Counted from the first letter of the stretch, positions 2,890 to 33,716 are shown. The stretch: 64,000 nt of DNA from Candidatus Kaiserbacteria bacterium (GCA_016204695.1 JACQKD010000001.1:4976-68975); one strand, 5' to 3'. The notes: generated by a model not told the origin, from the letters alone. Program-made: numbers and translations.

Positions 2890-2906
2890 TATGATATACT
2901 TCAACT

Positions 2907-3128
2907 ATGACTACAAAACAGCTTGAAAAAGCCATTGAAAAGGTGCGGCTCCTCTCGCGAGAGCGGCAAGTAGCCGCGGCTTCGGCACTTGAGCTCATAG
3001 CTCATCCAGACGATGCCTTGACCTCCTCTGAAATCAAGGGAGTGAAGCAAGCGCGAGCCTCCGTTCACGCCGGAAGGTATGCCGACAATAGAGCAGTCAC
3101 TGCGTTTTTCCGTCGTTTTAGTGTATGA
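2907..3128 (+). CDS. Putative antitoxin partner of the downstream ParE/RelE-family toxin (small helical protein).
   Basis: 73-aa ORF immediately upstream of a ParE-like toxin gene. It is preceded by gATATACT (-10) with 6 nt to the ATG, which is leaderless-like. There is no strong family match by eye. Confidence 0.4.
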   Translation: MTTKQLEKAIEKVRLLSRERQVAAASALELIAHPDDALTSSEIKGVKQARASVHAGRYADNRAVTAFFRRFSV

Positions 3129-3135
3129 ACCGGAT

Positions 3136-3238
3136 GAGGTTCCGATGCGAAGACTTGGAGCATCGGAAGACCTTGCGCGCCTGTTTTGTGAACGAAGCGA
3201 GACAAAACAGGCGCAAGGTGTACTGAACCTGTAAGGTT
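3136..3238 (+). repeat. Structured ~100-nt repeat element, copy A (candidate ncRNA or MITE-like element). A second copy lies at 16008-16117.
   Basis: About 90 nt align with copy B (gcgaagacttggagcatcggaagaccttgcgcgcctgttttgt...acaaaacaggcgcaaggtgtactgaacctgtaagg). It contains a near-perfect 18-20 bp hairpin (accttgcgcgcctgttttgt / acaaaacaggcgcaaggt) and a second hairpin (ccgatgc...gcatcgg) whose stem differs between the copies while keeping pairing. Confidence 0.6.
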
Positions 3239-3251
3239 CTCTGAACTCGCC

Positions 3252-3509
3252 TTGCATGATCTGGACGAGATTGCGGCGTATCTTGCGAATGAGAGTGAAA
3301 CACTCGCAAAGAGGGTCATCAACAACCTTGAGGGGTTTTGTTTTGTACTGGGCATTATGCCGGAGTTGGGTCGTCCATCGGAAATAGTGGGAGTGCGCAA
3401 ACTGGTTACTACGCGCTACCGTTATAAAATAATCTATGAGATTCGTACTGCTAAAAAAGAAGTCGTGATTCTGCGAGTCTATCACAGCACTCGAAAGATG
3501 CAGTATTAG
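3252..3509 (+). CDS. ParE/RelE-family type II toxin. It is N-terminally truncated or uses a TTG start.
   Basis: LHDLDEIAAYLANESETLAKRVINNLEGFCFVLGIMPELGRPSEIVGVRKLVTTRYRYKIIYEIRTAKKEVVILRVYHSTR matches the ParE consensus (DLxxIxxYI...P..GR.....R.L.....Y.I.Y.I....V.ILRV.H..R). Only a TTG start is available. An in-frame TGA at 3189-3191 lies inside the upstream repeat element. Confidence 0.65.
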   Translation: MHDLDEIAAYLANESETLAKRVINNLEGFCFVLGIMPELGRPSEIVGVRKLVTTRYRYKIIYEIRTAKKEVVILRVYHSTRKMQY

Positions 3510-3584
3510 GCAGTATGCATTCGAAATCAAGCGCATGCACAGCGGACATGGCGACTGTCTGCATGCGTGGGATATACTGTATCT

Positions 3585-4619
3585 ATGAAAAAGGTACGCG
3601 TGGCGATAAACGGGTTTGGGAGGATAGGGCGGGCGTTTTTCCGCATGGCCGAAGGTCGGGATGACCTGGAGATTGTGGCAATAAACGACCTCGGTTCGCT
3701 TGAGAATCTTGCGTACTTATTAAAATATGACACTGCCTACGGGCGCAGTCCGTTTGGGGTCGAGGTGAAAGATGGCAACCTCGTTGCGGCGGGGAAGACG
3801 GTACGCTTCGTGAGCGAGCGGGAGCCGGCACAGCTTCCATGGAAAGAGCTTGATATTGATGTGGTGGTGGAGGCGACGGGCATTTTCACGACCTACGAAG
3901 CCGCGAAGGCGCATCGTGATGCGGGCGCAAAGCGCGTGGTGCTCACCGCTCCGGCGAAGGATGAGCCGGAGAAAGCGGGAGTGAAGGGCGCGACCGTGCT
4001 CATGGGCATCAACGACGAACACCTTGCGGACTATGAAATCACCTCGAATGCGTCATGTACGACCAATGCCGCAAGTCCCTTGGTCGCCATTCTCGACGAA
4101 GCGATTGGCATCGAGCGCGCGCTTCTGAATACGACGCATGCGTATACCGCGTCGCAGTCGCTCGTTGACGGTCCGAATAAAAAAGACCTCCGCGATGGCC
4201 GTGCCGCCGCACATAACATGATTCCGAGTACCACCGGCGCGGCCATCGCAGTGACCAAGGCGTATCCCAAGCTCGAAGGAAAATTCGACGGGCTGTCGGT
4301 GCGCGTGCCGGTCATCGTCGGGTCGCTCGTTGACGTGACATTTGTCGCGTCGCGGGCGACGACGGTGGAGGAGGTCAATAATGCACTCAAAGCCGCCGCG
4401 GCATCCGAGCGGTGGCGGGGGATTTTCGCAGTGACGGAAGAGCCGCTGGTATCAAGCGATATCATCGGCGCGACCTATGCCTCCATCGCCGACCTCGGCA
4501 ATACGCTCGTCGCAGATGGCACGCTCGTCAAGGTGCTCGCGTGGTACGACAACGAAACCAGTTACACCCACACGCTTGTCGAGCATGTCGTTGCGCTCGG
4601 CAAGACGGTTGGTGCATAG
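3585..4619 (+). CDS. gap: Glyceraldehyde-3-phosphate dehydrogenase (type I).
   Basis: VAINGFGRIGR NAD-binding motif, SNASCTTN active-site Cys motif and WYDNE C-terminal motif. TATACT -10 sits 6 nt before the ATG at 3585. Confidence 0.95.
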   Translation: MKKVRVAINGFGRIGRAFFRMAEGRDDLEIVAINDLGSLENLAYLLKYDTAYGRSPFGVEVKDGNLVAAGKTVRFVSEREPAQLPWKELDIDVVVEATGIFTTYEAAKAHRDAGAKRVVLTAPAKDEPEKAGVKGATVLMGINDEHLADYEITSNASCTTNAASPLVAILDEAIGIERALLNTTHAYTASQSLVDGPNKKDLRDGRAAAHNMIPSTTGAAIAVTKAYPKLEGKFDGLSVRVPVIVGSLVDVTFVASRATTVEEVNNALKAAAASERWRGIFAVTEEPLVSSDIIGATYASIADLGNTLVADGTLVKVLAWYDNETSYTHTLVEHVVALGKTVGA

Positions 4620-8329: not shown

Positions 8330-9313
8330 ATGCCCGCGGAACACCTCAACAAAAAACTCTTTGACGAAGACATTGAGCGCGTACCCAATCGCGACGGTTT
8401 CGGCGAGGGCTTGCGCGAGGCGGGCGAGCGCGACAAACAAGTGGTCGCGCTCTGCGGCGACCTCACCGAGTCCACGCGGATGAGTATTTTTGCCGAGCAG
8501 TTTCCCGAGCGGTTCGTGCAGGTCGGCGTCGCCGAGCAATCGATGGCGTCGGTCGCTTCCGGCATGGCGGCGATGGGAAAGGTGCCGTTTATGGCTTCAT
8601 ACGCGATGTTTTCACCGGGACGCAATTGGGAGCAGATTCGCACGACGATTGCATACAACAACACGAACGTGAAAATAATCGGCTCGCATGCGGGTGTCTC
8701 CGTCGGTCCCGACGGCGCGACGCACCAGGCGATCGAAGACATCGCGCTTACGCGCGTCATGCCGAACATGACGGTGGTGGTGCCGTGCGACTCGATTGAG
8801 GCGAAGAAGGCGACGCTTGCGGCCGCAAGCCACATCGGTCCGCTCTACATCCGCCTCGCCCGCGAAAAGACCCCGGTCGTCACGACTGCCGACTCCCCTT
8901 TTGTTGTCGGGAAAGCGGAGGTGTATCTTTCTCCCGAAGGAAAAGAGAAAAAGATTGGAATCATCGCGTGCGGGACGATACTTCATAATGCGTTGCTCGC
9001 GGGCAAACGACTCAATGATGAAGGTATCGGCACGTCGGTGATGAACCTCGCGACCATCAAACCGCTCGATGAAGAAGCAGTACTTGCGTACGCGAAAGAA
9101 CACGAGGTTATTGTGACCGTCGAAGAACACCAAATCGCCGGAGGCATGGGTTCCGCCGTTGCCGAACTGCTCTCGGAAAAACATCCCCTGCGCGTCGTGC
9201 GTATCGGAGTCCGCGACCAATTCGGCCAGTCCGGCGAACCGGACGAACTGCTCAAACACTACGGCATCGATGTTGACAGCCTCTATGAGGCCGCAAAGAA
9301 TCGTGCAGTATAG
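8330..9313 (+). CDS. Transketolase, C-terminal (pyrimidine-binding/C-terminal) subunit.
   Basis: FPERFVQVGVAEQSMASVASGMA...IGSHAGVSVGPDGATHQAIEDIA is typical of the transketolase central/C-terminal domains. Confidence 0.9.
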   Translation: MPAEHLNKKLFDEDIERVPNRDGFGEGLREAGERDKQVVALCGDLTESTRMSIFAEQFPERFVQVGVAEQSMASVASGMAAMGKVPFMASYAMFSPGRNWEQIRTTIAYNNTNVKIIGSHAGVSVGPDGATHQAIEDIALTRVMPNMTVVVPCDSIEAKKATLAAASHIGPLYIRLAREKTPVVTTADSPFVVGKAEVYLSPEGKEKKIGIIACGTILHNALLAGKRLNDEGIGTSVMNLATIKPLDEEAVLAYAKEHEVIVTVEEHQIAGGMGSAVAELLSEKHPLRVVRIGVRDQFGQSGEPDELLKHYGIDVDSLYEAAKNRAV

Positions 9314-9323
9314 TTATAGAAAC

Positions 9324-9836
9324 ATGAACATGCAATCCGGAAATAGAGGACGCGGCTTCACCCTGATCGAACTCCTCGTCGTTATCGCCATCATCGGGCT
9401 CCTTGCGAGTGTCGTGATGGCGAATTTGAATAGTGCGCGGGCGAAAGCGAGAAATGTCCGGAGACAGGCCGACCTCAGTCAGATACAACGCGCACTTGAG
9501 TTTTATTACGATACGAATGGGCGATATCCTGCCTATGACGGAAGCCAGAGTGGCCTTCCGAATTGTGGCGGTTGGGCGCTAAACCATCCTTCGTACATGA
9601 CTTGCTGGAACGATTTGCAGGCGCGTCTTGCCCCGTATCTCTCCCAGTTGCCGGTCGATCCGACTCCAACCAACACACCGTATCACTATACTGCCAACTG
9701 GTGGTATAACGGCTCGGGATATGTTGCGTTCCAGGGCGGCGTCGGCCAAGGATTTGCATTACTCGCTTACCCTGAACCGGGTCTGGGATTCGGCATGGGA
9801 TGCTGGCCGGGATATTACACCGTATGTGTGAAGTAA
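9324..9836 (+). CDS. Type IV pilin (prepilin N-terminal cleavage/methylation domain).
   Basis: MNMQSGNRGRG|FTLIELLVVIAIIGLLASVVMANLNSARAKARNVRRQADLSQIQRALEFYYDTNGRYP shows the class III signal with Phe+1 and Glu+5. TATAGT -10 lies 9 nt before the ATG. Confidence 0.85.
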   Translation: MNMQSGNRGRGFTLIELLVVIAIIGLLASVVMANLNSARAKARNVRRQADLSQIQRALEFYYDTNGRYPAYDGSQSGLPNCGGWALNHPSYMTCWNDLQARLAPYLSQLPVDPTPTNTPYHYTANWWYNGSGYVAFQGGVGQGFALLAYPEPGLGFGMGCWPGYYTVCVK

Positions 9837-11912: not shown

Positions 11913-12437
11913 ATGAAATATTTTTCCGGCAGAGGAATCAACGTGAAGCCGCACAGCGGCTTCACGTTGATTGAGCTCCTCGTCGTCATCGCCATCATCG
12001 GTCTTCTGGCGAGCGTAGTGATGGCGAATTTGAACAGTGCGCGGGCGAAGGCACGGGATGCGCGGCGGCGCGCGGACATGAAAGAGCTGTATAAAGCGCT
12101 TGAACTTTACTACGATACCAATGGCGCATACCCATCAACAGGGAACGCGTGGATAGGCAATTGTGCATCGTACGGAAGTTATGGCACGTCAGGAGCAAGC
12201 GGATATATCCCGAACTTGGCACCGACCTATATACCGACGCTTCCACTTGATCCAAAATACAACGGTTCCAGCGGTTGCTATCTCTACAACTCTAATGGCG
12301 TCGAGTATAAATTACTTGCCCATTATACTGTCGAAAGTATCTGTCCGGTGCCGTCATCTGATGCGTTCTGGGATCCGGTGCGAAATGGTCAGTGTACATT
12401 CCAAATCTCGACCTCAGGCGCGCGTTCAACGTACTGA
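11913..12437 (+). CDS. Type IV pilin (second paralog).
   Basis: G|FTLIELLVVIAIIGLLASVVMANLNSARAKARDARRRADMKELYKALELYYDTNGAYP. The N-terminal 33 aa are identical to the pilin at 9324, with about 100 bp of nucleotide similarity. Confidence 0.85.
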   Translation: MKYFSGRGINVKPHSGFTLIELLVVIAIIGLLASVVMANLNSARAKARDARRRADMKELYKALELYYDTNGAYPSTGNAWIGNCASYGSYGTSGASGYIPNLAPTYIPTLPLDPKYNGSSGCYLYNSNGVEYKLLAHYTVESICPVPSSDAFWDPVRNGQCTFQISTSGARSTY

Positions 12438-14922: not shown

Positions 14923-15007
14923 CGGAGGACAGCAAAGGAACGATTCCGTTTTGCGGAATCGTTCCTTTGCTGTTTCTTTGGGCAGGGTATGGCATACTTT
15001 TGTAACC

Positions 15008-16000
15008 ATGAGCGAAGACATGCAAAAAACAGCATACGACGTCGACGCCTTCCGGACGGATCACCGGACGCAGTTTCTGGCCGATCAGTATGATGCGCTT
15101 GTGGCGCGACAGGCGGAGCTTGCCGACATGGTGGCGGAGGACGAGACCATGCGGGAACTCGCGGAAGAAGAAAGGAAAGACCTTACCGTGCAACAAAAGT
15201 CGCTTCTTGAAGAGATGGTTCGTATTCTTGTATCGGCTCGAGAAGACGAAGAAAAGCCGTATGGGGTGGTGCTTGAAGTGCGCGCAGGCGCAGGCGGTGA
15301 AGAGGCGGCGCTGTTTGCCGAGGAACTCGCGGAGATGTATACGAAATACTCCGCCCGCGAGGGGTGGAAGGTGGCGGTATTGGCGGAGTCGCGGGCATCA
15401 CAAGGAGGGTATAAGGAAGCCGCGTTTGAGATTGTGGGCAAGGAGGCGCACGAGGCGTTACGGTACGAAACCGGCGTTCATCGAGTCCAGCGGATTCCGG
15501 TGACGGAAAAAGCCGGCCGCATCCATACGTCGACCGCTTCGGTGGCCGTGCTTCCCTTGCGCAAAAAGCCCACGATCGAGATCTCTCCCTCGGATATCCA
15601 AATGGAGTTTTCTCGTTCCGGAGGAGCCGGCGGACAGAATGTGAACAAAGTGGAGACGGCCGTACGGCTCGTGCATGTGCCGACCGGCATCGAGGCTCGC
15701 TCGCAGTCGGAGCGCTCCCAGCAAAAGAATCGAGAAAAAGCGATGGCGGTGCTTGTCGCCAAGCTCGAATCACTCCACGAGGAAGAAGAAGTAAAAAAAC
15801 ACGCGGCGGTTCGGCGCAGTCAAATCGGCACCGGCGACCGCTCGGAGAAGATTCGCACGTACAACATGCCGCAGTCCCGTATCACCGACCACCGCATCAA
15901 GGAATCCTGGCACAATATCGAGGAAATCCTCGCGGGCGGACTTGACCCCGTCATTGCCGCCCTGCGGACGGCGGCATCCGATGGCGGGGTGGTTGCATGA
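15008..16000 (+). CDS. prfA: Peptide chain release factor 1.
   Basis: PVT tripeptide anticodon motif ([14 protein letters not shown]) and the GGQ motif ([25 protein letters not shown]). Confidence 0.9.
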
Positions 16001-16007
16001 GCAGGTT

Positions 16008-16117
16008 GGCTGTGATACGGTGAGAAGCGAAAGCTTGGAGCTTCGCAAGACCTTGCGTGCCTGTTTTGTAAGCGAAGCGAAACAAAAGAGCCGCAAGGTG
16101 TACAGCGCCTGTAAGGC
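16008..16117 (+). repeat. Structured ~100-nt repeat element, copy B. It lies between the prfA stop and the rpsB promoter.
   Basis: Aligns over about 90 nt with copy A at 3147-3236. Substitutions in the first hairpin are compensatory (A: ccgatgc/gcatcgg; B: gaagc/gcttc around the same gaaRRcttgga loop). Confidence 0.6.
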
Positions 16118-16170
16118 GGAGATAGGCTGACTCTTTTCAAGGAGCTCTGGTTTTTATACTTTAAATTTAC

Positions 16171-16923
16171 ATGGATTCACATACAACCGAGGAAACACAG
16201 GATAACTCGCTCGTCGAGCGTCTTTTTCGCGCCGGCGCTCACTACGGTTTTTCGAAATCCCGGCGCCATCCCACGGCCGCTCCCTACCTGTTTTCGACCA
16301 AGCAGGGCACGGATATTTTTGATCTTGAGAAGACCAGCCGCCTGCTCGCTGACGCAAAAGAATATCTTTCCGATATCGCGGCAAAGGGCGGCGTCGTTCT
16401 GTTGGTGGGCACCAAGGAGGAAGTCAAGGAGATCGTCAAGTCATGCGCGATAGAGCTCTCCATGCCGTCGGTCACCAATCGTTGGATCGGCGGTACGCTG
16501 ACCAACTTTTCCCAGATACAGAAGCGCATCAACTATCTTGCGAACCTGCGAGCGGAGCAAGCGTCGGGAGAACTTGATCGCAAATATACAAAAAAAGAGC
16601 GTTTGCTTTTAGGACGCGAAATGGAGAGACTGGTGCTCAATTTTGGCGGTATCACGGCAATGGAGCGTCCGCCGGCGGTACTGCTTGTCGTCGATCCGCG
16701 GCATGAAGCGCTTGCGGTCCGGGAAGCGCGGGATATGCACATCCCCGTCATTGCCATCATGAGTTCCGATTGTAATGCTGATCGTGTGGACTGGCCGGTG
16801 TATCTGAATGACGCGCACCGCTCGAGTGTGGCGCTTGCGCTTGATGAACTGGCGGCGGGATACAAGAACGGACTTACCCGTGCGCAAGCCGCTCCGGCCG
16901 CTCGCGAAGGACGCGCATCCTAG
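16171..16923 (+). CDS. rpsB: 30S ribosomal protein S2.
   Basis: LFRAGAHYGFSKSRRHP..., VLLVGTKEE..., NRWIGGTLTNF are S2 signatures. TATACT -10 lies 10 nt upstream. Confidence 0.95.
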   Translation: MDSHTTEETQDNSLVERLFRAGAHYGFSKSRRHPTAAPYLFSTKQGTDIFDLEKTSRLLADAKEYLSDIAAKGGVVLLVGTKEEVKEIVKSCAIELSMPSVTNRWIGGTLTNFSQIQKRINYLANLRAEQASGELDRKYTKKERLLLGREMERLVLNFGGITAMERPPAVLLVVDPRHEALAVREARDMHIPVIAIMSSDCNADRVDWPVYLNDAHRSSVALALDELAAGYKNGLTRAQAAPAAREGRAS

Positions 16924-24238: not shown

Positions 24239-26359
24239 ATGGCTAAAAACACATCTCCCAAAACGCTAAAAGTAAAGGTTTCTGAAAAAGTGAAGGTTTA
24301 TGATGCCACGAGCATTACCGTGCTTGAAGGGCTTGACCCGGTGCGCAAGCGGCCGGGCATGTACATCGGTACGACCGGTACGGATGGTCTCCACCATCTT
24401 ATTTGGGAAGTTTTTGATAACTCCCGCGACGAGGCGATGGGCGGATTTGCCGACCGTGTCGAGGTCGTGCTTCTGCCGGACAATCGCATTCGTGTCGTCG
24501 ACAACGGCCGCGGCAATCCGGTGGATATGCACAAGCAGACGAATGTGTCCGCGCTTGAGACCATCATGACGACGCTTCACGCCGGAGGAAAATTTGGCGG
24601 CGAAGGGTACAAGGTTTCCGGCGGACTCCATGGTGTCGGCGTGTCGGTGGTCAACGCGCTCTCGACGTATGTCCGCGCCGACGTCTACCGCGACGGCGGT
24701 CACTTCGTGCAGGAATATGAAATCGGCAAGCCGAAGGCGAAGGTGAAAAAGGTCGGCGCGTCGGACCTCAACGGCACGATTATCACCTTCGAGCCGGATA
24801 TCTCCATCTTCAAAGAAATTTCATTCGAGTGGAATCGTATCGTCGCGCACTTGCGCCAGCAGGCGTATTTGGTCAAAGGGATGCACTTGCGGGTGATTGA
24901 CGCGCGAGAGACGAAAGTGCCGAATCTCGACAACACGTTTTGGTTTGCCGACCTCGGTGTTGAAGCGCCGTCGCAGACGTTCTACTTCGAAGGCGGTTTG
25001 CGCTCTCTCGTCGCATTCCACAATCAGTATCAGAAGCCCATTCACCGACACATTTTTTATGTCGAGAAAGAAAATGTTGACGCGGCGGTGCTTTCGGTCG
25101 AAGTCGCATTGCAGTATGTGGACGACATCTCCGCGCGCATCACCGCCTTTGCCAACAATATCCACAACGCCGAGCACGGCACGCACGTCACCGGCTTCAA
25201 GACCGCGCTCACCCGCACGCTGAATAATTACGCGCGCAAGAACAATTTTATAAAAGAAAAAGACGAGTCGTTCACCGGCGAAGATGTGCTCGAAGGCATC
25301 ACCGTCGTCATCTCGGTGAAGATGCCGGAAATACAATTTGAAGGACAGACCAAGAGCAAACTCGGTTCGGTGGAGGCGCGCAGTGCGGTCGAGACGGTCT
25401 TCGGCGACGCCTTTGCGACATTTCTTGAGGAGAACCCGGACGACGCCAAGGCGATCGCAAACAAAGTCATCATTGCGGTGAAGGCGCGCAAGGCCGCAAA
25501 GGCGGCGAAGGACTCCGTGCTCCGCAAGGGCGCGCTTGAGGGCATGACGCTTCCGGGCAAACTCGCCGATTGTCAGACCAAGAGCGCGGAAGAATCGGAG
25601 CTCTTCATCGTGGAGGGCGACAGCGCCGGAGGAAGTGCGAAAATGGGACGCGATCGAAGGACGCAGGCGATCTTGCCTCTGCGGGGGAAGATACTCAATG
25701 TCGAGAGAGCGCGCATCGACAAGATGCTCGATTCCGAGCAGATTAAAAATCTCGTGATTGCGCTCGGGACCGCCATCGGCGATGTCTTCGACCTTTCGAA
25801 ACTGCGCTATCACAAGATAATCATCGCGACTGATGCGGATGTCGACGGTGCGCACATCCGCACGCTTCTTCTCACTCTTTTCTATCGCTACTTCCGGCCG
25901 GTCATAGACGGCGGATATGTCTATATCGCCCAGCCGCCGCTCTACAAAATCCAAAAAGGGAAGGCGACCACGTATGCGTACACGGATGCCGAAAAATTTG
26001 AAATTCTCGGTGAGGAGGGCGAGTCGGCGCAGATCGAGGGAAGTGCTCCGGAGATGGAGGTCGAAGGAGGGAATGAGTCCGTTGAAGAGGAGGATGCCGA
26101 TTCGTCAGTCGACGAAGAAGGAGAAACGTCAAAGCGGAAAATAAAAACGCACATCCAGCGGTACAAAGGACTCGGAGAGATGAACGCCGAAGAATTGTGG
26201 GAGACGACCATGAATCCCGAGAACCGCATCTTGAAGCAGGTGCATGTCGAGGACGCCGCAGACGCCGACCGCGTGTTCGACATCCTCATGGGCACCGATG
26301 TCGGCAGTCGCAAGTCTTTCATCCAGTCGAACGCCCACATGGCGAATTTGGATATTTGA
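24239..26359 (+). CDS. gyrB: DNA gyrase subunit B.
   Basis: GLDPVRKRPGMYIGTTG, HHLIWEVFDNSRDEAMGG (GHKL ATPase), the Toprim EGDSAGGSAKMGRDR..QAILPLRGKILNVE, and C-terminal GLGEMN. It contains a ~45-aa acidic insertion before the C-terminal tail. Confidence 0.95.
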   Translation: MAKNTSPKTLKVKVSEKVKVYDATSITVLEGLDPVRKRPGMYIGTTGTDGLHHLIWEVFDNSRDEAMGGFADRVEVVLLPDNRIRVVDNGRGNPVDMHKQTNVSALETIMTTLHAGGKFGGEGYKVSGGLHGVGVSVVNALSTYVRADVYRDGGHFVQEYEIGKPKAKVKKVGASDLNGTIITFEPDISIFKEISFEWNRIVAHLRQQAYLVKGMHLRVIDARETKVPNLDNTFWFADLGVEAPSQTFYFEGGLRSLVAFHNQYQKPIHRHIFYVEKENVDAAVLSVEVALQYVDDISARITAFANNIHNAEHGTHVTGFKTALTRTLNNYARKNNFIKEKDESFTGEDVLEGITVVISVKMPEIQFEGQTKSKLGSVEARSAVETVFGDAFATFLEENPDDAKAIANKVIIAVKARKAAKAAKDSVLRKGALEGMTLPGKLADCQTKSAEESELFIVEGDSAGGSAKMGRDRRTQAILPLRGKILNVERARIDKMLDSEQIKNLVIALGTAIGDVFDLSKLRYHKIIIATDADVDGAHIRTLLLTLFYRYFRPVIDGGYVYIAQPPLYKIQKGKATTYAYTDAEKFEILGEEGESAQIEGSAPEMEVEGGNESVEEEDADSSVDEEGETSKRKIKTHIQRYKGLGEMNAEELWETTMNPENRILKQVHVEDAADADRVFDILMGTDVGSRKSFIQSNAHMANLDI

Positions 26360-26371
26360 GCGTTGTTGCAA

Positions 26372-26413
26372 GCAGACCGAAAAATCCGCCTAAGGCGGAT
26401 TTTTCGGTCTGCT
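26372..26413. terminator. Perfect inverted-repeat hairpin between convergent gyrB and the surface-protein gene. Likely a bidirectional terminator.
   Basis: gcagaccgaaaaatccgcc taa ggcggatttttcggtctgc. The T-tract is on the plus side and the A-tract on the other. Confidence 0.7.
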
Positions 26414-26433
26414 TTCCGTCTCGATCCATTCTC

Positions 26434-27510
26434 TTAATCCTCGATATCGACTGTCTTTGAGAAAGAATTGTTGGCCGCGTTGATGTCGCCGCCTCCTGTT
26501 ACGGTCGCCGAGATGCGCTCGCTACCGTCTTTGCTGACGTCGTCAAATTGCAGGGTGATGATCTGGCGTTCGTTCGGTTTCAGAGGAGCGTTCGCACTTG
26601 ATTTGTATGTAAAGTCGGCATCGGTCGGAAGTGTTGCGGAGAAATACCAAACATCCGATGTTTTGGTGCCGATATTTTTCACTTCAAAGCGCAGTGCGCC
26701 GCGTTCGTCTTCTTCAAGCGAAGAATGAGGGGTAAAGATTTTTGTGCTCGTGTCGTATGTGCCGACGCCGATGAAGGTGGCCGCGAGATCGGTGAACCCG
26801 CTCGGATCGGACTCCGGCATCTTCGTAACGACCACCGGCACGGTCCGGTATTGTACGGGAGGTATGTCCGCCGATGGCGGCTCCGGATCAGATGTTTCTT
26901 CCGGTTCCGGTGTTGGTTCGGGCCGGGGCTCCGGCGGCGCGGAGTCGTTGTTGTCCTCTTCGGCGACGGTACCGTTGTCTGTCGTGGCAAGACCGTCCTC
27001 GCTGACTGCCGGATTGACGACGGTCACTTTGGCGGTCTGTGCTTGCGGCTCTTCGCCGTCGGGAGTGAATTCGATCGTGTAGGGTACGTCCGCGTAGCGA
27101 CTGCGTTCGGAGGAAAAGACGACCGCGGCCGATTCCGTATTTTTTCCAAGCGGCACGTTTGTGTCGCATTCGACTTTCGAAAGATTCCCCGACTCGTCTC
27201 GTATTTCGGCAACTACGCCGTCGGTGCATTGGTACGAAAATGCGTACGTTCCATCCGCGCCGGCTCGTGTCCAGGAAACGGTCAAAATCTCTCCCGTATT
27301 GAGAAGGGTCGTATCAGTGGAAAGGGTGAATTGTGTCTGCTCGTTGCGGAAACTCGCGGCGATCGAGCCGAGCGTGTCAAACGCCGCGGGAGCGAGCCGC
27401 ACCGCCTGCACGGCGAGCCATGCCACAAAGACAAGAGCAACGATGAAGCCGATAATGGCGAGGGTTTTGATAATAGTGGTCTTTTGCCGTTCGTTTTCCG
27501 TGCCGTTCAT
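26434..27510 (-). CDS. Membrane-anchored surface/secreted protein (N-terminal TM, Pro/Glu-rich linker). Hypothetical.
   Basis: N-terminal hydrophobic anchor IIKTLAIIGFIVALVFVAWLAV. PEPRPEPTPEPEETSDPEPP linker. No C-terminal sorting signal. Confidence 0.5.
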   Translation of the reverse strand: MNGTENERQKTTIIKTLAIIGFIVALVFVAWLAVQAVRLAPAAFDTLGSIAASFRNEQTQFTLSTDTTLLNTGEILTVSWTRAGADGTYAFSYQCTDGVVAEIRDESGNLSKVECDTNVPLGKNTESAAVVFSSERSRYADVPYTIEFTPDGEEPQAQTAKVTVVNPAVSEDGLATTDNGTVAEEDNNDSAPPEPRPEPTPEPEETSDPEPPSADIPPVQYRTVPVVVTKMPESDPSGFTDLAATFIGVGTYDTSTKIFTPHSSLEEDERGALRFEVKNIGTKTSDVWYFSATLPTDADFTYKSSANAPLKPNERQIITLQFDDVSKDGSERISATVTGGGDINAANNSFSKTVDIED

Positions 27511-29497: not shown

Positions 29498-32400
29498 TTG
29501 TCTGCCGCTGTTATGGAAAAAATTTTCAGTACGAAAGGTCTTGTTACGGTAGGATTTTCAGTATTCATTGCCGCTCTGGTTGTCTTTACCGTACTGCCGC
29601 GCTTACCCGATATCCAAGCGGCAACGGGTGTTGACTTCAGTCTCGGAGCACTTGCTGTTGATGCATGTTGCGATGACGGAGGTGACGACGGTGGCGGCGA
29701 CACTGGTGATGGTGACGACGGAAGCGGTGGCGGTGGGGACAACGGAGGTGGAGGTGGTGGCGGAGGTGATTGTTGCGGCGGCGGTGAGACACCTCCTCCT
29801 CCAACTCTTTCTGTTTCTTGTACTCCAAGTGATTCTTCAATTCAGACCGGCGGCACGGTGACCTGGCGCGCGACAGTGAGCGGCGTCGACGGCGCGGCGA
29901 CTTTCTCGTGGGCTGATACGGCGGGCGGCACGGCCGCAACAGGCTCGACGCACTCTTGGTCGCGCACCTATAATTCCGCCGGCGCAGTGGGAGCTTCGGT
30001 GATTGCGGTGACGACCACCGGCCAGCGTGCCGAGGCATCCTGCGGGAGCGTTGTGGTGCGACCGATTCCTCAAACCCTCTCTGTTTCCTGCACCCCAAGC
30101 GCGTCCTCAATCCGCACCGGTGAGACGGTGACCTGGCGTGCGACAGTGAGCGGCGTCGACGGCGCGGCCACTTTTTCATGGGCTGACACGGCGGGCGGCA
30201 CGGCCGCAACCGGCTCAACACATTCATGGTCGCGCACCTATAATTCCGCCGGCGCAGTGGGAGCTTCGGTGATTGCGGTGACGACCACCGGCCAGCGTGC
30301 CGAGGCATCCTGCGGGAGCGTCACAGTGACGACGACTCCGCCTCCATCTGTTCCGCTTACCGTCACCTGCCAGGCATCCGTCTCCTCGATTCAAAGCGGC
30401 GGCTCCGTCACATGGACGGCATCTCCGTCGGGCGGCAGTGGCGCCTATCAGTTCAGCTGGTCTGACACCGACGGCGCGCAATTTTCAAGTGGTACGGCGC
30501 ACTCGTGGACTCGGACATATACGACGGCTGGCACCAAGGGTGCTTCTGTCGCTGTCGCCGATACGTTGGGGAACACAAAGACCGCATCCTGCGGGAGCGT
30601 TGTGGTGCGACCGATTCCTCAAAATCTCTCCGTCTCTTGTACCCCGAGCGCATCCTCGATCCAAACCGGCGGTACGGTTACATGGAGAGCGACAGTCAGC
30701 GGCGTTGACGGCGCGGCTTCTTTCTCGTGGGCTGACACGGCGGGCGGCACCGCATCCACGGGCGCAACAAACTCATGGTCGCGCACATACAATACTGCGG
30801 GAACCATCGGCGCATCGGTGATCGCGGTCACAACGACCGGCCAGCGCGCGGAAGCATCCTGCGGGAGTGTTGTGGTGCGAACAACGCCTCCTCCGCCTTC
30901 CGAAACTCCCACCGGCACCATTTCCGCAAACCCCAACCCGTGCCGCATCGCACAGGGAGGGACGCAGTGTGCTTCCAACATCACTTGGTCTACACAGCAC
31001 ACGACGAATGCCACCGTGTGTGTGGATGGTTCACTCTTTGCGAATGCGACATTCGGCAGTCAAAATGCTCCGTGGATTCAGGCAAATCATAACTACGTCT
31101 TTACCCTTTTCAACGGCGGCAGTTGCGGTGGCACAGTACTTGACCGCGTGACGGTGACGGCGATTCCGCCGGCGGCCCAGGGCGCTCCGACCTGTACGCT
31201 TACCGCAAATCCTTCCTCGATCAATTCCGGAAACACGGCGATGCTCTCGTGGACGACGACGGGCGCGACAAGCGGTTCCATTAATAATGGCGTTGGGGCG
31301 ATGATTCCGATCGCAAACGGCTCAAAGAGTGTCTCTCCGACGAATAATACGACATATACCGCGACGGTAACGGGTCCCGGAGGCAGTGCGGATTGTTCAA
31401 CATCTGTGACCGTACTGCCGGTGGTGGGAGACCCTGTGGCTCGGTGCGACTTTTTCAGCGCAAGTCCGAGCGTGGTTGACCGCGGCGGCATCACGACGCT
31501 CCGATGGGAAACGACGAATGCTTCGCGAGTGTCTATCAACGGCGCGGGCGCAAGCGCGGTAGACGGCAGTATGGATGTGCAAGTGCAGAACGACACGACC
31601 TACACGCTCACCGCTCATGGATTTACCAATGATACCTGTTCAACGACGGTGACGGTGCGGCCGACGGTCATGCGCACGCTCGTCGTGCAAAAGCTCGGCA
31701 ACGGCACCGGGTCGGTGACGACGACCGGCTTGGATTGTCCGGCAGGGAACACTATTTGCAGTAATCAGTACAGTCAGGGAACCAATCTCGTGCTGAACGC
31801 GGCGGCATCCGCCGGTTCCACATTTGCGGGCTGGGGCGGCGACTGTTCGGCGAATGGCGCAGTAACGATGGACACCAACAAGACCTGTACGGCGACATTC
31901 GTACTTGCGCCTGTCGGTGCGCCGACTTGCAGTATTTCAGCGGCTCCCGCTTCCATCGCGTCCGGTTCTTCGACGACGCTCTCATGGACGACGGCCAATG
32001 CAACGAGCGGCTCTATCGACAACGGCGTCGGCGCGATGATTCCGATCGCGGGCGGCTCACGGAGTGTCACTCCATCAGGCACCACCACATACACCGCGAC
32101 GGTGAGCGGCTCCGGAGGAACGGCGAATTGCGCCGTCACGGTAGTGGTGTCTCCGCAATCCGAATCGCTTCGCTGTGATTCCTTCAGCGCAAGCCCAAGC
32201 TCCATTGATGAAGGGGATACGACGACGCTTCGTTGGGAGACCACCGGCGCGACGAGTGTGGAAATCTCGGATGGCATCGGTTCGGTCGGCTCCGACGGAA
32301 GCAGGACGGTGAGCCCGGATAATGACACGACCTATACGCTTGTTGCTCGACGCGGAAGCGACACCGCTACCTGCTCGACGAGCGTGAATGTGGACGAGAA

Positions 32401-33655
32401 CAATGGCGGAGGAGGAGGTTCGTCAAGCTCCTCACCACGCTGTGAGCTCTTCCGCGCATCGGACGATGACATCACCGCCGGCGAGCGAGTGACGCTCCGC
32501 TGGAGGACGGAGGACGGCAGTGAGTTGCGTATCGAAGATGACCGCGACAACGAGATATTCGAGACCAATGACGATGACGATGTCGACGACGGCGAAGTAA
32601 CCGTGCGTCCGACGCGCGACACTCGCTACACGCTCACCGTCGAGCGCGGAAGCCGCGATGATGAATGTACGACGCGCATCGACGTTGAAGACCGGGAAGT
32701 CTCACTCATTCTTGACCGCGATCAACAGCCGCTGACCTCCATCTCCCTCTCACAGGTGCCGTATACCGGCTTTGACGCAGGACCGTTTCTGACGACTGTC
32801 TTCTACGTCCTCCTTGCGCTCTGGGCCGCATCGGTGACCTATGTGCTCGTTATCAAAAAGGGTTCCGTATTCGGTGTCGCTCTGCGTCGGCAGGCGCCCT
32901 ACCGGCCCGCACATGCGGTGGCGATTCCCCATGGCGAGTACCGATCAAACGTCCGGTACCCGCGGATGTACGCGGAAGCCACCGCCACTGCTGTGAATTC
33001 CTCCCCGTTTGCCGCTCCGGTGCGCGGATATGGCGCGGTGGCGATGACCGACGATGAAGTCGAGCCGGAGACCGAAGATGCCGATACCTACCTCAAGGAA
33101 CGTGCGCACGAGCTCAATCTCATTCTTTCCAATGATGCGGTGCGCTTCATTTTGGAACGCGCGAATTCAAGGGAAGATCGCATGACGTTTCTTGATGAGG
33201 TGAGCGCTCGCGCGAAGGCGATCTATCCTCGCGAAGACGGCTGGGTCGTCGTCAATCGCGAGCGTATTGAAATGCTCGCCGCGAGCCAGCCCGTGTCTGC
33301 GGCGTCACCGGTTTCTGTTGAAGAAGAGCCGAAGGATATCGCAAAGTTGATGCGGGTGCCCACGCTTGCCGAGGCGATTGTAACGGGCAATGTCACTGCG
33401 GCATATACCGCCCTTGGCGATCTGCCGCTTGTCGCGCTCGCCGACGCAGTGGGCGATCTCGATGCGCTCTTTCGAGTACGGCATGACGAAGAGATTGATG
33501 TCCCCGGGACCCTTGTGGAAGCGGCGGCTCGTCTCTCGGACGACCAACTTGAAGAAGTGATCCAATCGCTTGCAAGCGCCATTGATGGCGTATATCGCGA
33601 CGAGGCGGCGGCCGTGAAGCTTGCCATCATAAAGGCGATCAAGGCGGTCGCGTAA
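29498..33655 (+). CDS. Giant repeat-containing cell-surface protein (putative adhesin). It has an N-terminal signal anchor, a Gly/Asp/Cys low-complexity segment, 4 PKD/Ig-like repeats, about 5 Cys-bounded beta-domain repeats, a Listeria/Bacteroides-repeat-like module, an acidic Asp-rich region, a TM segment and a 270-aa cytoplasmic tail.
   Basis: 1385 aa. Repeats SVSCTPS..S.IQTGGTVTWRATVSGVDGAATFSWADTAGGTA.TG..HSWSRTYN.AG..GASVIAVTTTGQRAEASCGSV occur four times. A second repeat family C..SA.P.SI..G.TT.L.W.TT.A.S..I.NG.G.... is present. The segment ..SQVPYTGFDAGPFLTTVFYVLLALWAASVTYVLVIKKG (pentapeptide-TM-KK) is followed by a long tail. Confidence 0.7.
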   Translation: MSAAVMEKIFSTKGLVTVGFSVFIAALVVFTVLPRLPDIQAATGVDFSLGALAVDACCDDGGDDGGGDTGDGDDGSGGGGDNGGGGGGGGDCCGGGETPPPPTLSVSCTPSDSSIQTGGTVTWRATVSGVDGAATFSWADTAGGTAATGSTHSWSRTYNSAGAVGASVIAVTTTGQRAEASCGSVVVRPIPQTLSVSCTPSASSIRTGETVTWRATVSGVDGAATFSWADTAGGTAATGSTHSWSRTYNSAGAVGASVIAVTTTGQRAEASCGSVTVTTTPPPSVPLTVTCQASVSSIQSGGSVTWTASPSGGSGAYQFSWSDTDGAQFSSGTAHSWTRTYTTAGTKGASVAVADTLGNTKTASCGSVVVRPIPQNLSVSCTPSASSIQTGGTVTWRATVSGVDGAASFSWADTAGGTASTGATNSWSRTYNTAGTIGASVIAVTTTGQRAEASCGSVVVRTTPPPPSETPTGTISANPNPCRIAQGGTQCASNITWSTQHTTNATVCVDGSLFANATFGSQNAPWIQANHNYVFTLFNGGSCGGTVLDRVTVTAIPPAAQGAPTCTLTANPSSINSGNTAMLSWTTTGATSGSINNGVGAMIPIANGSKSVSPTNNTTYTATVTGPGGSADCSTSVTVLPVVGDPVARCDFFSASPSVVDRGGITTLRWETTNASRVSINGAGASAVDGSMDVQVQNDTTYTLTAHGFTNDTCSTTVTVRPTVMRTLVVQKLGNGTGSVTTTGLDCPAGNTICSNQYSQGTNLVLNAAASAGSTFAGWGGDCSANGAVTMDTNKTCTATFVLAPVGAPTCSISAAPASIASGSSTTLSWTTANATSGSIDNGVGAMIPIAGGSRSVTPSGTTTYTATVSGSGGTANCAVTVVVSPQSESLRCDSFSASPSSIDEGDTTTLRWETTGATSVEISDGIGSVGSDGSRTVSPDNDTTYTLVARRGSDTATCSTSVNVDENNGGGGGSSSSSPRCELFRASDDDITAGERVTLRWRTEDGSELRIEDDRDNEIFETNDDDDVDDGEVTVRPTRDTRYTLTVERGSRDDECTTRIDVEDREVSLILDRDQQPLTSISLSQVPYTGFDAGPFLTTVFYVLLALWAASVTYVLVIKKGSVFGVALRRQAPYRPAHAVAIPHGEYRSNVRYPRMYAEATATAVNSSPFAAPVRGYGAVAMTDDEVEPETEDADTYLKERAHELNLILSNDAVRFILERANSREDRMTFLDEVSARAKAIYPREDGWVVVNRERIEMLAASQPVSAASPVSVEEEPKDIAKLMRVPTLAEAIVTGNVTAAYTALGDLPLVALADAVGDLDALFRVRHDEEIDVPGTLVEAAARLSDDQLEEVIQSLASAIDGVYRDEAAAVKLAIIKAIKAVA
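29807..30895 (+). repeat. Tandem array of four ~270-276-bp coding repeats inside the giant surface-protein gene.
   Basis: Units start at about 29807, 30077, 30353 and 30625. Units 1 and 2 are about 95% identical at nucleotide level. Unit 3 has diverged. Unit 4 is close to unit 1. Confidence 0.85.
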
Positions 33656-33671
33656 GAAGATTTAAAATTTT

Positions 33672-33716
33672 AAGGGCACCAAAAAATCCGCCTCCGGCGG
33701 ATTTTTTGGTGCCCTT
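33672..33716. terminator. Inverted-repeat hairpin after the giant surface-protein gene. Its sequence is related to the hairpin at 26372-26413.
   Basis: aagggcaccaaaaaatccgcc tcc ggcggattttttggtgccctt. Shares the core AAAAATCCGCC-N3-GGCGGATTTTT with the hairpin at 26372. Confidence 0.7.

Follow-up and report, generated by a model that had tools for sequence, protein, structure and literature searches.

The 64-kb stretch of Candidatus Kaiserbacteria DNA analyzed here (the window) carries two copies of a folded element of ~100 nt, copy A within the toxin gene parE and copy B in the spacer between prfA and rpsB (Table 1; loci from other genomes are cited by L number). A first-pass annotation had described a two-copy repeat, and the copies indeed align without gaps over 93 nt (3144-3236 and 16024-16116) with 85% identity. 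A covariance model built from relatives matched positions 3127-3266 (45.9 bits) and 16013-16157 (47.6 bits), both on the + strand with rough E values of ~1e-10, and nothing else in the window. Fold energies were -49.4 kcal/mol for copy A and -41.4 kcal/mol for copy B, with z scores of -5.6 and -2.4, respectively, versus shuffled sequence. Each copy forms three successive hairpins. P1, which pairs 3140-3148 with 3160-3168 in copy A and 16021-16028 with 16040-16047 in copy B, has the 11-nt loop GAARRCTTGGA in both; the hairpin and its loop were correctly predicted, but the proposed compensation between the two stems mostly failed, a single pair being truly compensated (T-A to A-T). The long hairpin proposed next corresponds to P2, and the G.G mismatch of P2 in copy B recurs in L076 and L094. 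The closing helix proposed for the 3' segment was not recovered, this segment forming instead a local hairpin, P3, with the loop TGTAA in copy A, in copy B, and in ~100 relatives. Copy B was 91% and 89% identical to copies from two other Kaiserbacteria genomes and 81% identical to copy A, indicating that the window copies are not recent duplicates of one another.

Copy A had been placed inside a toxin-antitoxin operon; the location is right, and the element actually interrupts parE after codon 6. Removal of positions 3143-3239 yielded, from the start ATG at 3125, a single open reading frame (ORF) of 95 aa that matched Pfam ParE (PF05016, profile positions 2-88 of 89) and aligned without gaps to six intact 95-aa homologues (53 to 74% identity; start MNRVRFSELAL). 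The intact DNA site in L098 reads ATGAACCGGGTGAGGTTT followed by TCTGAA, and the window bears a 97-nt block exactly there, at codon 6/7, with AGGTTC on either side, the insert being 3143-3239 or any register within the AGGTTC repeat. The database entry for the window ParE (Candidatus Kaiserbacteria) is a truncated 85-aa form, and the ORF in the antitoxin position had no Pfam match. Comparison with the empty site identifies copy A as a lineage-specific insertion in parE, which has split and inactivated the toxin gene while the antitoxin-position ORF remains upstream.

The position of copy B after prfA and upstream of rpsB was confirmed. The order L31-prfA-rpsB-tsf is conserved in three relatives in which ribosomal protein S2 is 88%, 75%, and 68% identical, and the prfA-rpsB spacer spans 170 nt in the window versus 105, 45, and 41 nt in these relatives, in none of which did the covariance model detect an element in this spacer. 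Copy B starts within ~5 nt of the ancestral prfA stop. The sequence GTGTGATAC, considered as an rpsB promoter upstream of copy B, corresponds to conserved C-terminal codons of prfA and its stop, and the copy in L053 was rejected as an orthologue of copy B, since it sits between RNase Y-like and HU-like genes (by eye). The spacer comparison shows copy B to be a lineage-specific insertion just after the ancestral prfA stop. It is oriented in the sense direction and is probably part of the prfA-rpsB transcript; this sequence analysis found no evidence for regulation of rpsB by copy B. The window prfA stops at a TGA at 15998-16000, five codons ahead of the conserved stop, and the closest relative, L099, has the same early stop. 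L097, an independent assembly of the same organism, begins 82 nt upstream of rpsB, inside copy B (window ~16089), which may reflect an assembly break at the repeat.

Table 1. Positions of the two element copies, their hairpins, and adjoining genes in the window
Feature	Position	Strand	Remarks
Antitoxin-position ORF, 73 aa	2907..3128	+	Upstream of interrupted parE
parE 5' fragment MNRMRF	3125..3142	+	
AGGTTC direct repeat, left copy	3137..3142	+	Native parE codons 5-6, Arg-Phe
Copy A, solo form, ~100 nt	3140..3239	+	Covariance model, alignment, empty-site comparison
Copy A hairpin P1	3140..3168	+	TTCCGATGC / GCATCGGAA, 11-nt loop GAAGACTTGGA
Copy A long hairpin P2	3170..3219	+	Base ACCTTGCG/CGCAAGGT, apex loop GAACGAAGCGAG
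Copy A junction GTAC, P2-P3	3220..3223	+	Invariant across pattern-selected copies
Copy A hairpin P3	3225..3239	+	GAACC-TGTAA-GGTTC (3225-3229 with 3235-3239)
AGGTTC direct repeat, right copy	3234-3239	+	Within P3
parE 3' part SELALHDLDEI...	3240..3509	+	Joined to 3125-3142, gives 95-aa ParE
prfA (PCRF + RF-1 domains)	14951..16000	+	Upstream neighbor of copy B
Ancestral prfA stop TGA in GTGTGATAC	16013..16015	+	Conserved in two relatives
Copy B, solo form	16021..16119	+	Shared 5' end ACGGTGAG from 16017
Copy B hairpin P1	16021..16047	+	TGAGAAGC / GCTTCGCA, one A.G mismatch, loop GAAAGCTTGGA
Copy B long hairpin P2	16050..16099	+	One G.G mismatch and one extra C.C mismatch
Copy B hairpin P3	16106..16118	+	CGCC-TGTAA-GGCG (16106-16109 with 16115-16118)
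rpsB (ribosomal protein S2)	16171..16923	+	Downstream neighbor of copy B

A pattern scan anchored on the exact P2 base, run over one-genome-per-species contigs, retrieved 91 stretches, all of which, except for three chance matches, were from Patescibacteria, in Kaiserbacteria, in Paceibacterota/Parcubacteria, and in metagenome-assembled genomes labelled Saccharibacteria. The covariance model, built from 25 sequences, gave 113 matches in the loci found by the pattern, indicating that many genomes hold further, more divergent copies. The check for additional copies suggested by the first-pass annotation was thus positive, the family comprising ~100 copies in roughly 60 species-level Patescibacteria genomes. 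Its core consists of P1, the long P2, the GTAC junction, and P3 with the loop TGTAA. Screening of the window and 32 loci against Rfam 15 at the gathering threshold returned only tRNAs, and a permissive scan (E<=10) of both window sites returned only microRNA- or CRISPR-type matches at chance level (E>0.1); a known RNA family was rejected on this basis. A search of the literature found no description of the family, which is apparently a large and previously undescribed family of Patescibacteria.

Covariation deduced from the A/B pair itself was weak, as opposed to that of the wider family, which was convincing. RNAalifold predicted 46 pairs from 25 sequences, of which 28 were compensated. Across 102 distinct sequences, 96.6% of the cells were paired in P1, 97.8% in P2, and 95.6% in P3, and both sides had changed in 8/8, 12/14, and 5/7 of the pairs, respectively; pairing across the whole structure fell to 70.6% after shuffling and to 35 to 50% with slid partners. 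The P2 base covaries in divergent members, ACCTTGCG/CGCAAGGT being replaced by GGTTGCC/GACAACC, by CCCCGATG/CATCGGGG, or by ACTCATTG/CAATGAGT. In the internal helices, G.U pairs outnumbered A.C combinations (42 versus 17, P = 0.0015, in an alignment fitted by a model of that same strand), and a U.G pair at the base of P3 was kept in 68/102 copies. The G.U excess and the conserved U.G indicate that the fold belongs to one strand, which is the sense strand of the host gene. Thus, compensatory changes maintain the internal helices, and folding is specific to one strand. Two extra modules occur in some members, and these may be either helix expansions or nested small insertions. One is a two-hairpin insert, gccgagattttaaaggagcg.agcgactat.aaaatccaagtgc, located after GTAC between P2 and P3 (L010, L038, L051, and L086); the other is an insert of ~65 to 75 nt in the P3 loop after CTGTA (L005, L057, L083, and L086), which in L005 and L057 is edged by CTGTA on both sides.

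The usual home of the family is the 3' end of tRNA genes, an association that was invisible to the first-pass annotation because the window copies lack the tRNA-derived frame. A same-strand tRNA gene was present upstream of 66/96 pattern matches, the element lying 20 to 60 nt downstream of the tRNA, and addition of the model matches brought the total to 76 element-linked tRNAs of 14 amino-acid specificities. At these sites, the 5' arm of the element is the exact reverse complement of the T-loop, the 3' strand of the T-stem, the 3' strand of the acceptor, and N73 of the tRNA, extends into 1 to 8 nt of the trailer or into the encoded CCA, and is split by P1 precisely opposite the acceptor/T-stem junction. 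The 3' side of the element is a direct repeat of the same tRNA segment (15 to 27 nt), of 21 to 22 nt in the short form and of 15 nt in the long one, which has an extra hairpin, P4. The arm complements the 3' strand of the tRNA rather than copying its 5' strand, as seen for tRNA-Tyr (GCGTCGG, with a T.G wobble, versus GCGCCGG in the arm) and tRNA-Glu (GGCCCCA versus GACCCCA in the arm). Across 50 copies, with the arms placed by similarity to the tRNA, 89 changes relative to the tRNA were found in the repeat and 99 in the arm, only 6 of which were matched. Since each copy borrows a different tRNA, the covariation that RNAalifold reports for the outer helix is an artefact, and the idea of an RNA stem under selection was rejected for this helix: the arm and the repeat each decay on their own and look like copies made upon arrival of the element. 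No inverted copy of the tRNA's own 3' end was present at 73/94 element-free tRNAs, indicating that the arm comes with the element and excluding the hairpin formed by tRNA and arm as a native feature of tRNA termination. Tandem units were present in L061, L006, L091, and L049. ARAGORN and the Rfam tRNA/tmRNA models called only the genuine upstream tRNAs and not the element.

A second, unrelated core (containing GAGCCGCAGCGATGTTTTGCC, GGCAAAACCGCGAGGCGGGGTCGCG, and GTGACCACAA, in that order) was found after tRNA genes behind the same kind of antisense arm. Its full frame is seen in L049:1-232 (- strand), downstream of tRNA-Ser(cga) (232-320), where the arm, a P1-like hairpin, the GTGGGATTTGAA arm, the core, and the direct repeat follow one another in tandem units. 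This core also occurs after tRNA-Lys in L051 (1782-1855) and L079 (3497-3570), after tRNA-Arg in L064 (7558-7630), in L068 and L075, and downstream of copies of the first family in L030, L063, L081, and L090. It is not in Rfam, and a search of the window gave a single match with 3 mismatches, which is at chance level, so that a second family in the window was rejected. In L040 (3790-3875, - strand), downstream of tRNA-Leu(gag) (3875-3959), a perfect palindrome comprises the whole segment from the T-loop to the 3' end, the trailer, and a terminator hairpin, and is followed by the contiguous reverse complement of the tRNA segment, with neither P1 nor either core; inverted copying of a tRNA 3' end can therefore happen without the core of the first family.

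Related genomes with collinear flanks differ in the occupancy of orthologous tRNA sites. The tRNA-Ser(cga) site is filled in L072 and L088 and empty in L022 and L082, and the tRNA-Arg(tct) site is filled in L025 and empty in L058. In the alignments, filled and empty sites differ by a single additional unit, in which a small number of trailer nucleotides and a loop precede the antisense arms with their P1, followed by the core and then by the repeated tRNA end; beyond this unit, the native trailer resumes. The two filled Ser sites contain very different cores (P2 base GGGGTTGTTGGC versus AGACCTTGCGAG) between flanks that are 82 to 92% identical, which suggests that the elements arrived separately or were turned over, and were not inherited vertically.

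Solo copies, namely A, B, and the copy in L094, have no tRNA-derived repeats, and the window copies have no tRNA neighbor. The P1 loop of A and B, GAARRCTTGGA, is shared with a few others (one metagenome scan plus the model). In L094, a 102-nt copy resembling copy B lies in frame and without a stop in a 645-aa PriA-like ORF, its 34 codons occupying a hypervariable linker between conserved blocks of the orthologues. In L092 and L074, the copy is on the strand opposite to that of the tRNA and is flanked by a repeat of ~43 nt that covers tRNA-Glu from its anticodon loop through its 3' end. Stand-alone copies in L053, L009, L030, and L076 are followed by terminator-like hairpins. At the junctions, the element ends have sequence in common with the target: the empty parE site holds GGTGAGG, which is the 5' end of B-type copies, and its GTGAGGTT(C) matches the 3' end of the element, GTAAGGTTC, at 8/9 positions; GGTTC is also the universal T-loop motif. 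ACGGTGAGAAGCGAA is identical at the 5' ends of copy B and of the L094 copy and overlaps a native ...ACGG in both hosts. A 6-nt target duplication, AGGTTC, is apparent for copy A, its right copy being the element's own P3 strand, and none is clear for copy B or L094. A consistent target duplication for the solo copies was rejected, and at least one junction match reflects coincidence or homology rather than duplication, because the boundaries deduced from AGGTTC (copy A) and from GATA(C)GG (copy B) disagree.

No protein was linked to the element. The ORFs within the 8-kb loci around the 91 copies included no recurrent protein family, recombinase, or transposase, and Pfam analysis of 47 window ORFs revealed housekeeping genes, including those for RNase III, an RNB-family exoribonuclease, RNase HII, and TrmD, and none for a recombinase, a reverse transcriptase, or a transposase; a linked enzyme was rejected on this basis. 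No Y1/HUH gene was found in these loci or among the scanned window ORFs. Three scans of viral contigs gave no match or random 15-16-mer matches, and none of the 82 viral contigs retrieved with 15-16-mer patterns was matched by the model, which led us to reject a phage or plasmid parent. The representative of the largest ORF cluster near the copies is an antisense ORF overlapping the element. Spurious long ORFs of this kind (window 2901-3536, - strand; L032:4035-4601, - strand) cluster in the loci as a false "protein family," and gene callers may report them as hypothetical proteins.

Several known systems share some of these properties. Rickettsia palindromic elements (RPEs) are strongly folding sequences of ~100 to 150 nt that contain no ORF, occur in many copies with no linked transposase, and insert between genes, within or beside RNA genes, and into protein genes, where in-frame read-through can occur. 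The in-frame copy in the PriA-like gene of L094 recalls RPEs, a resemblance in behavior only. To our knowledge, RPEs are confined to Rickettsia, are defined by sequence and not by covarying helices, and make no frame from the target, whereas the present family, whose host here is Candidatus Kaiserbacteria, covaries and builds its frame from the target. Bacterial miniature inverted-repeat transposable elements (MITEs), such as Correia, ERIC, RUP, and Nezha, are small, non-autonomous, and interspersed, are often transcribed and folded, and can disrupt genes. The first-pass annotation had proposed either a novel noncoding RNA (ncRNA) or a MITE-like repeat. The mobile-repeat side of this proposal is favored, as both window copies are insertions without counterpart in relatives, and the family is, like MITEs, small, devoid of ORFs, multicopy, and insertion-polymorphic. 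It is not a classical MITE, because it lacks terminal inverted repeats, a target duplication of fixed length, and a parent insertion sequence. Neither the two ends of copy A (TTCCGATGC... and ...TGTAAGGTTC) nor those of copy B (TGAGAAGC... and ...TGTAAGGCGG) form an inverted pair, the inverted repeats seen being those of the internal hairpins; the target repeat varies from 6 nt (A) to none clear (B and L094) to 15 to 27 nt (tRNAs); no insertion sequence with matching ends was present in the 8-kb loci of the 91 copies; and the copies are diverse and maintained by compensatory changes rather than near-identical and recent. Elements of the IS200/IS605 PATE or REP/RAYT (REPIN) type would be expected to have subterminal hairpins with a fixed target of 4 to 5 nt, or a GTAG-type REP, together with a Y1/HUH transposase in the genome; the copies studied here occupy different targets (parE, the prfA spacer, the PriA linker, and 14 tRNA types), an argument against a short fixed target.

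In 2002, Williams reportedly defined sublocation classes for tyrosine-integrase islands and prophages in tRNA genes. As in such islands, the direct repeat of the tRNA-linked relatives starts from the T-loop or the anticodon loop, tandem units are found, and the tRNA itself is not disrupted. Unlike islands, the units are of 100 to 200 nt, encode no integrase, contain an antisense tRNA copy and a three-hairpin core, and have solo copies away from tRNA genes; the window copies themselves have no tRNA neighbor and show no island-type repeat. In integron attC sites and CTX phage attP(+), the structure is conserved, the sequence is variable, folding is restricted to one strand, and the folded hairpin reproduces a duplex target. 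The present family likewise combines a conserved structure, a variable sequence, and a strand-specific fold, a likeness that does not discriminate because RNAs share it. It differs from attC by a branched three-hairpin core in place of a bulged hairpin, by a tRNA gene as the target, and by having no recurrent integrase or Xer-type recombinase gene beside the copies. E. coli tyrT is followed by 178-bp repeats, each with the last ~19 nt of tRNA-Tyr, similar to the tandem units found here after tRNA genes, each ending in a copy of the tRNA 3' end; as far as we know, the tyrT repeats occur at a single locus, have neither a conserved multihairpin core nor an antisense arm, and have not spread to other tRNAs or genomes. 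An example of a tRNA-like processing frame is provided by mascRNA. Plant tRNA-snoRNA genes are cut by RNase Z (PMC12045711). The family resembles dicistronic tRNA-ncRNA genes in having a structured RNA immediately 3' of a tRNA, on the same strand, in a frame cleavable by tRNA-processing enzymes, and departs from them, which are fixed host genes, in that its sites are polymorphic, its frame exactly copies the neighboring tRNA, and its bare copies enter coding genes. Group I introns were rejected, as published tRNA introns of Patescibacteria sit at position 35/36 of the anticodon loop (PMC13011429) and are much larger than the ~100-nt core; group I and group II intron models had no match in either window site even at E<=10. 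TIGR-Tas guide arrays, which have 36-nt units, are unrelated.

Together, these results establish the insertion of both window copies, a large family, a strand-specific fold upheld by compensation, a preference for tRNA 3' ends with a frame derived from the target, site polymorphism, and no linked protein. On balance, we favor by a modest degree the view of a non-autonomous mobile element of ~100 nt, present in the window in its bare "solo" form, with a conserved single-strand three-hairpin core folding as RNA. Such an element would be cotranscribed with the host gene, and selection would preserve an RNA fold that the element needs in order to be propagated by a trans-acting factor. New copies would be written in via homology between the element ends and the target, and not by a transposase with a fixed staggered cut, the target being GGTGAGG...AGGTTC for copy A and the shared segment being of 15 to 27 nt at tRNA genes. 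The window copies are probably of no useful effect for the host.

Several points weigh against this view. Sampling was biased toward the P2 base fixed by the scan pattern, and an alignment made with the model tends to favor the structure that the model encodes. DNA sites that fold as single strands, integron attC among them, likewise show covariation with strand bias, and the RNA nature of the fold is consequently not proven. Empty tRNA sites could stem from precise loss by recombination between the direct repeats, and the short junction homologies of copy B and L094 were deduced in part from relatives that have diverged. Transcription, an RNA/DNA intermediate, and the enzyme rest on inference and not on direct evidence. 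Under none of the readings discussed does a mechanism, whether staggered cuts, fold-back synthesis, Campbell integration, template switching, or tRNA-primed reverse transcription, account for the antisense arm, with P1 interrupting it, that accompanies every new tRNA target. Finally, the placement of P1 and the terminator-like hairpins after several copies also fit a processed tRNA-like RNA used by the host.

A broader extension of the mobile-element reading is advanced only tentatively. The family might represent a new class of protein-less mobile elements that home to tRNA 3' ends, write a tRNA-like frame from their target, carry interchangeable cargo (at least two unrelated cores), and are guided to the target by base pairing as RNA or folded single-stranded DNA and not by an enzyme encoded in cis, the window copies being off-target events at the T-loop-like GGTTC/GGTGAGG.

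The last objection above leads to a different function, in which the family would be a structured ncRNA (small RNA or cis-acting leader) used by the host, expressed behind tRNA genes within a tRNA-like frame, and matured by RNase P, RNase Z, and the CCA-adding enzyme, with the window copies as stand-alone genes and copy B acting on the prfA-rpsB transcript. This function would agree with the strong compensatory covariation and the G.U bias, with the location of every counted downstream-adjacent copy on the same strand as its tRNA, and with the branching of P1 opposite the acceptor/T-stem junction, as in the tRNA body. It would also agree with the terminator-like hairpins found directly after several tRNA-linked and stand-alone copies, with the second core in the same frame, which is reminiscent of swappable cargo in a processing scaffold, and with the insertion of helices of variable length, as in functional RNAs. 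We nevertheless consider it unlikely that the family serves the host in this manner, since neither window copy is kept at the orthologous site in relatives, copy A destroys a gene, the L094 copy lies within coding sequence, and orthologous tRNA sites are either filled or empty, the filled ones containing unrelated core variants. Moreover, the outer "acceptor/T" helix is not compensated and pairs through N73 and the encoded CCA, which a tRNA mimic should leave single-stranded, and a closing stem with a function of its own would not need to be a copy of the neighboring tRNA.

The family could also act at the DNA level, either as a folded single-stranded site of the integron attC or CTX phage attP type or as a mini-island or scar left by integrases for which the T-loop or anticodon loop of a tRNA gene is the site of recombination, the duplex formed by arm and repeat mimicking the double-stranded tRNA-gene target. 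The T-loop and the anticodon loop are the two classical crossover positions of integrases, and the direct repeats begin at the former (main type) or the latter (L074/L092 type), run to the tRNA 3' end, and leave the tRNA intact. The arm is a perfect Watson-Crick complement reaching past the tRNA into the trailer, the tandem units of L061, L006, and L049 are those expected from Campbell-type integration of a circle, and GCGAAGC, which forms an unusually stable mini-hairpin in DNA, is frequent in the apex loops. The probability of a DNA-level element is low in our judgment, because no integrase or recombinase was linked in the 91 loci or among the 47 window ORFs scanned, a double-stranded circle of only 100 to 190 bp would be very small, repeats derived from a tRNA are missing from the solo copies A, B, and L094, none of the 82 viral contigs was matched by the model, and the switch to a new tRNA is equally unexplained. 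Chance similarity or a decaying segmental duplication in this genome, with neither a family nor a selected structure, might have accounted for only two copies in the 64-kb window, 81 to 85% identical and with two mismatches in P2 of copy B, but is refuted by ~100 homologous copies in roughly 60 other genomes, by covariation far above the shuffled and slid controls, and by the greater similarity of copy B to copies of other genomes than to copy A.

Other repeats were noticed in the window. A 902-aa ORF (181-2889, +) with periodic repeats of ~250 to 310 nt and the motif GN(V/I)GIGTT has a Peptidase_S74 "chaperone of endosialidase" domain (residues 577-638) and a Ser/Thr/Ala/Pro-rich tail; it is a tail-fibre-like, self-processing surface protein in a genome of the Candidate Phyla Radiation. 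A 1385-aa ORF (29498-33655, +), which is probably another repetitive surface protein, has 300-nt repeats starting at 29765, 30035, and 30584 (80 to 82% identical) and a weak InlB B-repeat-like domain. Two ORFs (9159-9836 and 11913-12437, +) with type IV pilin-like N-terminal methylation motifs share a 178-nt repeat (9352-9529 and 11956-12133, 75% identical) and flank genes for a PfkB kinase and a 2-hydroxyacid dehydrogenase. Near-identical terminator-like palindromes at 26339-26445 and 33678-33710 (ACCGAAAAATCCGCCT.AGGCGGATTTTTCGGT and ACCAAAAAATCCGCCTCCGGCGGATTTTTTGGT) are likely bidirectional terminators with shared sequence.

At a practical level, repeats of this family may break assemblies, create false "hypothetical" antisense ORFs, and truncate gene calls, as for the window ParE annotated with 85 aa. 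Group II introns have not been detected in Patescibacteria (PMC13011429). Roughly 60 species-level genomes of these bacteria, which are tiny and streamlined, hold multiple copies of a structured element that is not listed in RNA databases. If the element is mobile, it shows how a parasite without genes persists in minimal genomes by landing at the end of tRNA genes, the safest site on offer, without breaking the tRNA, coding genes being occasionally struck, with inactivation of a toxin here and read-through in a PriA-like protein elsewhere. If its frame is made from the target, the family would provide a natural example of nucleic-acid-guided insertion, and such systems are of practical interest.

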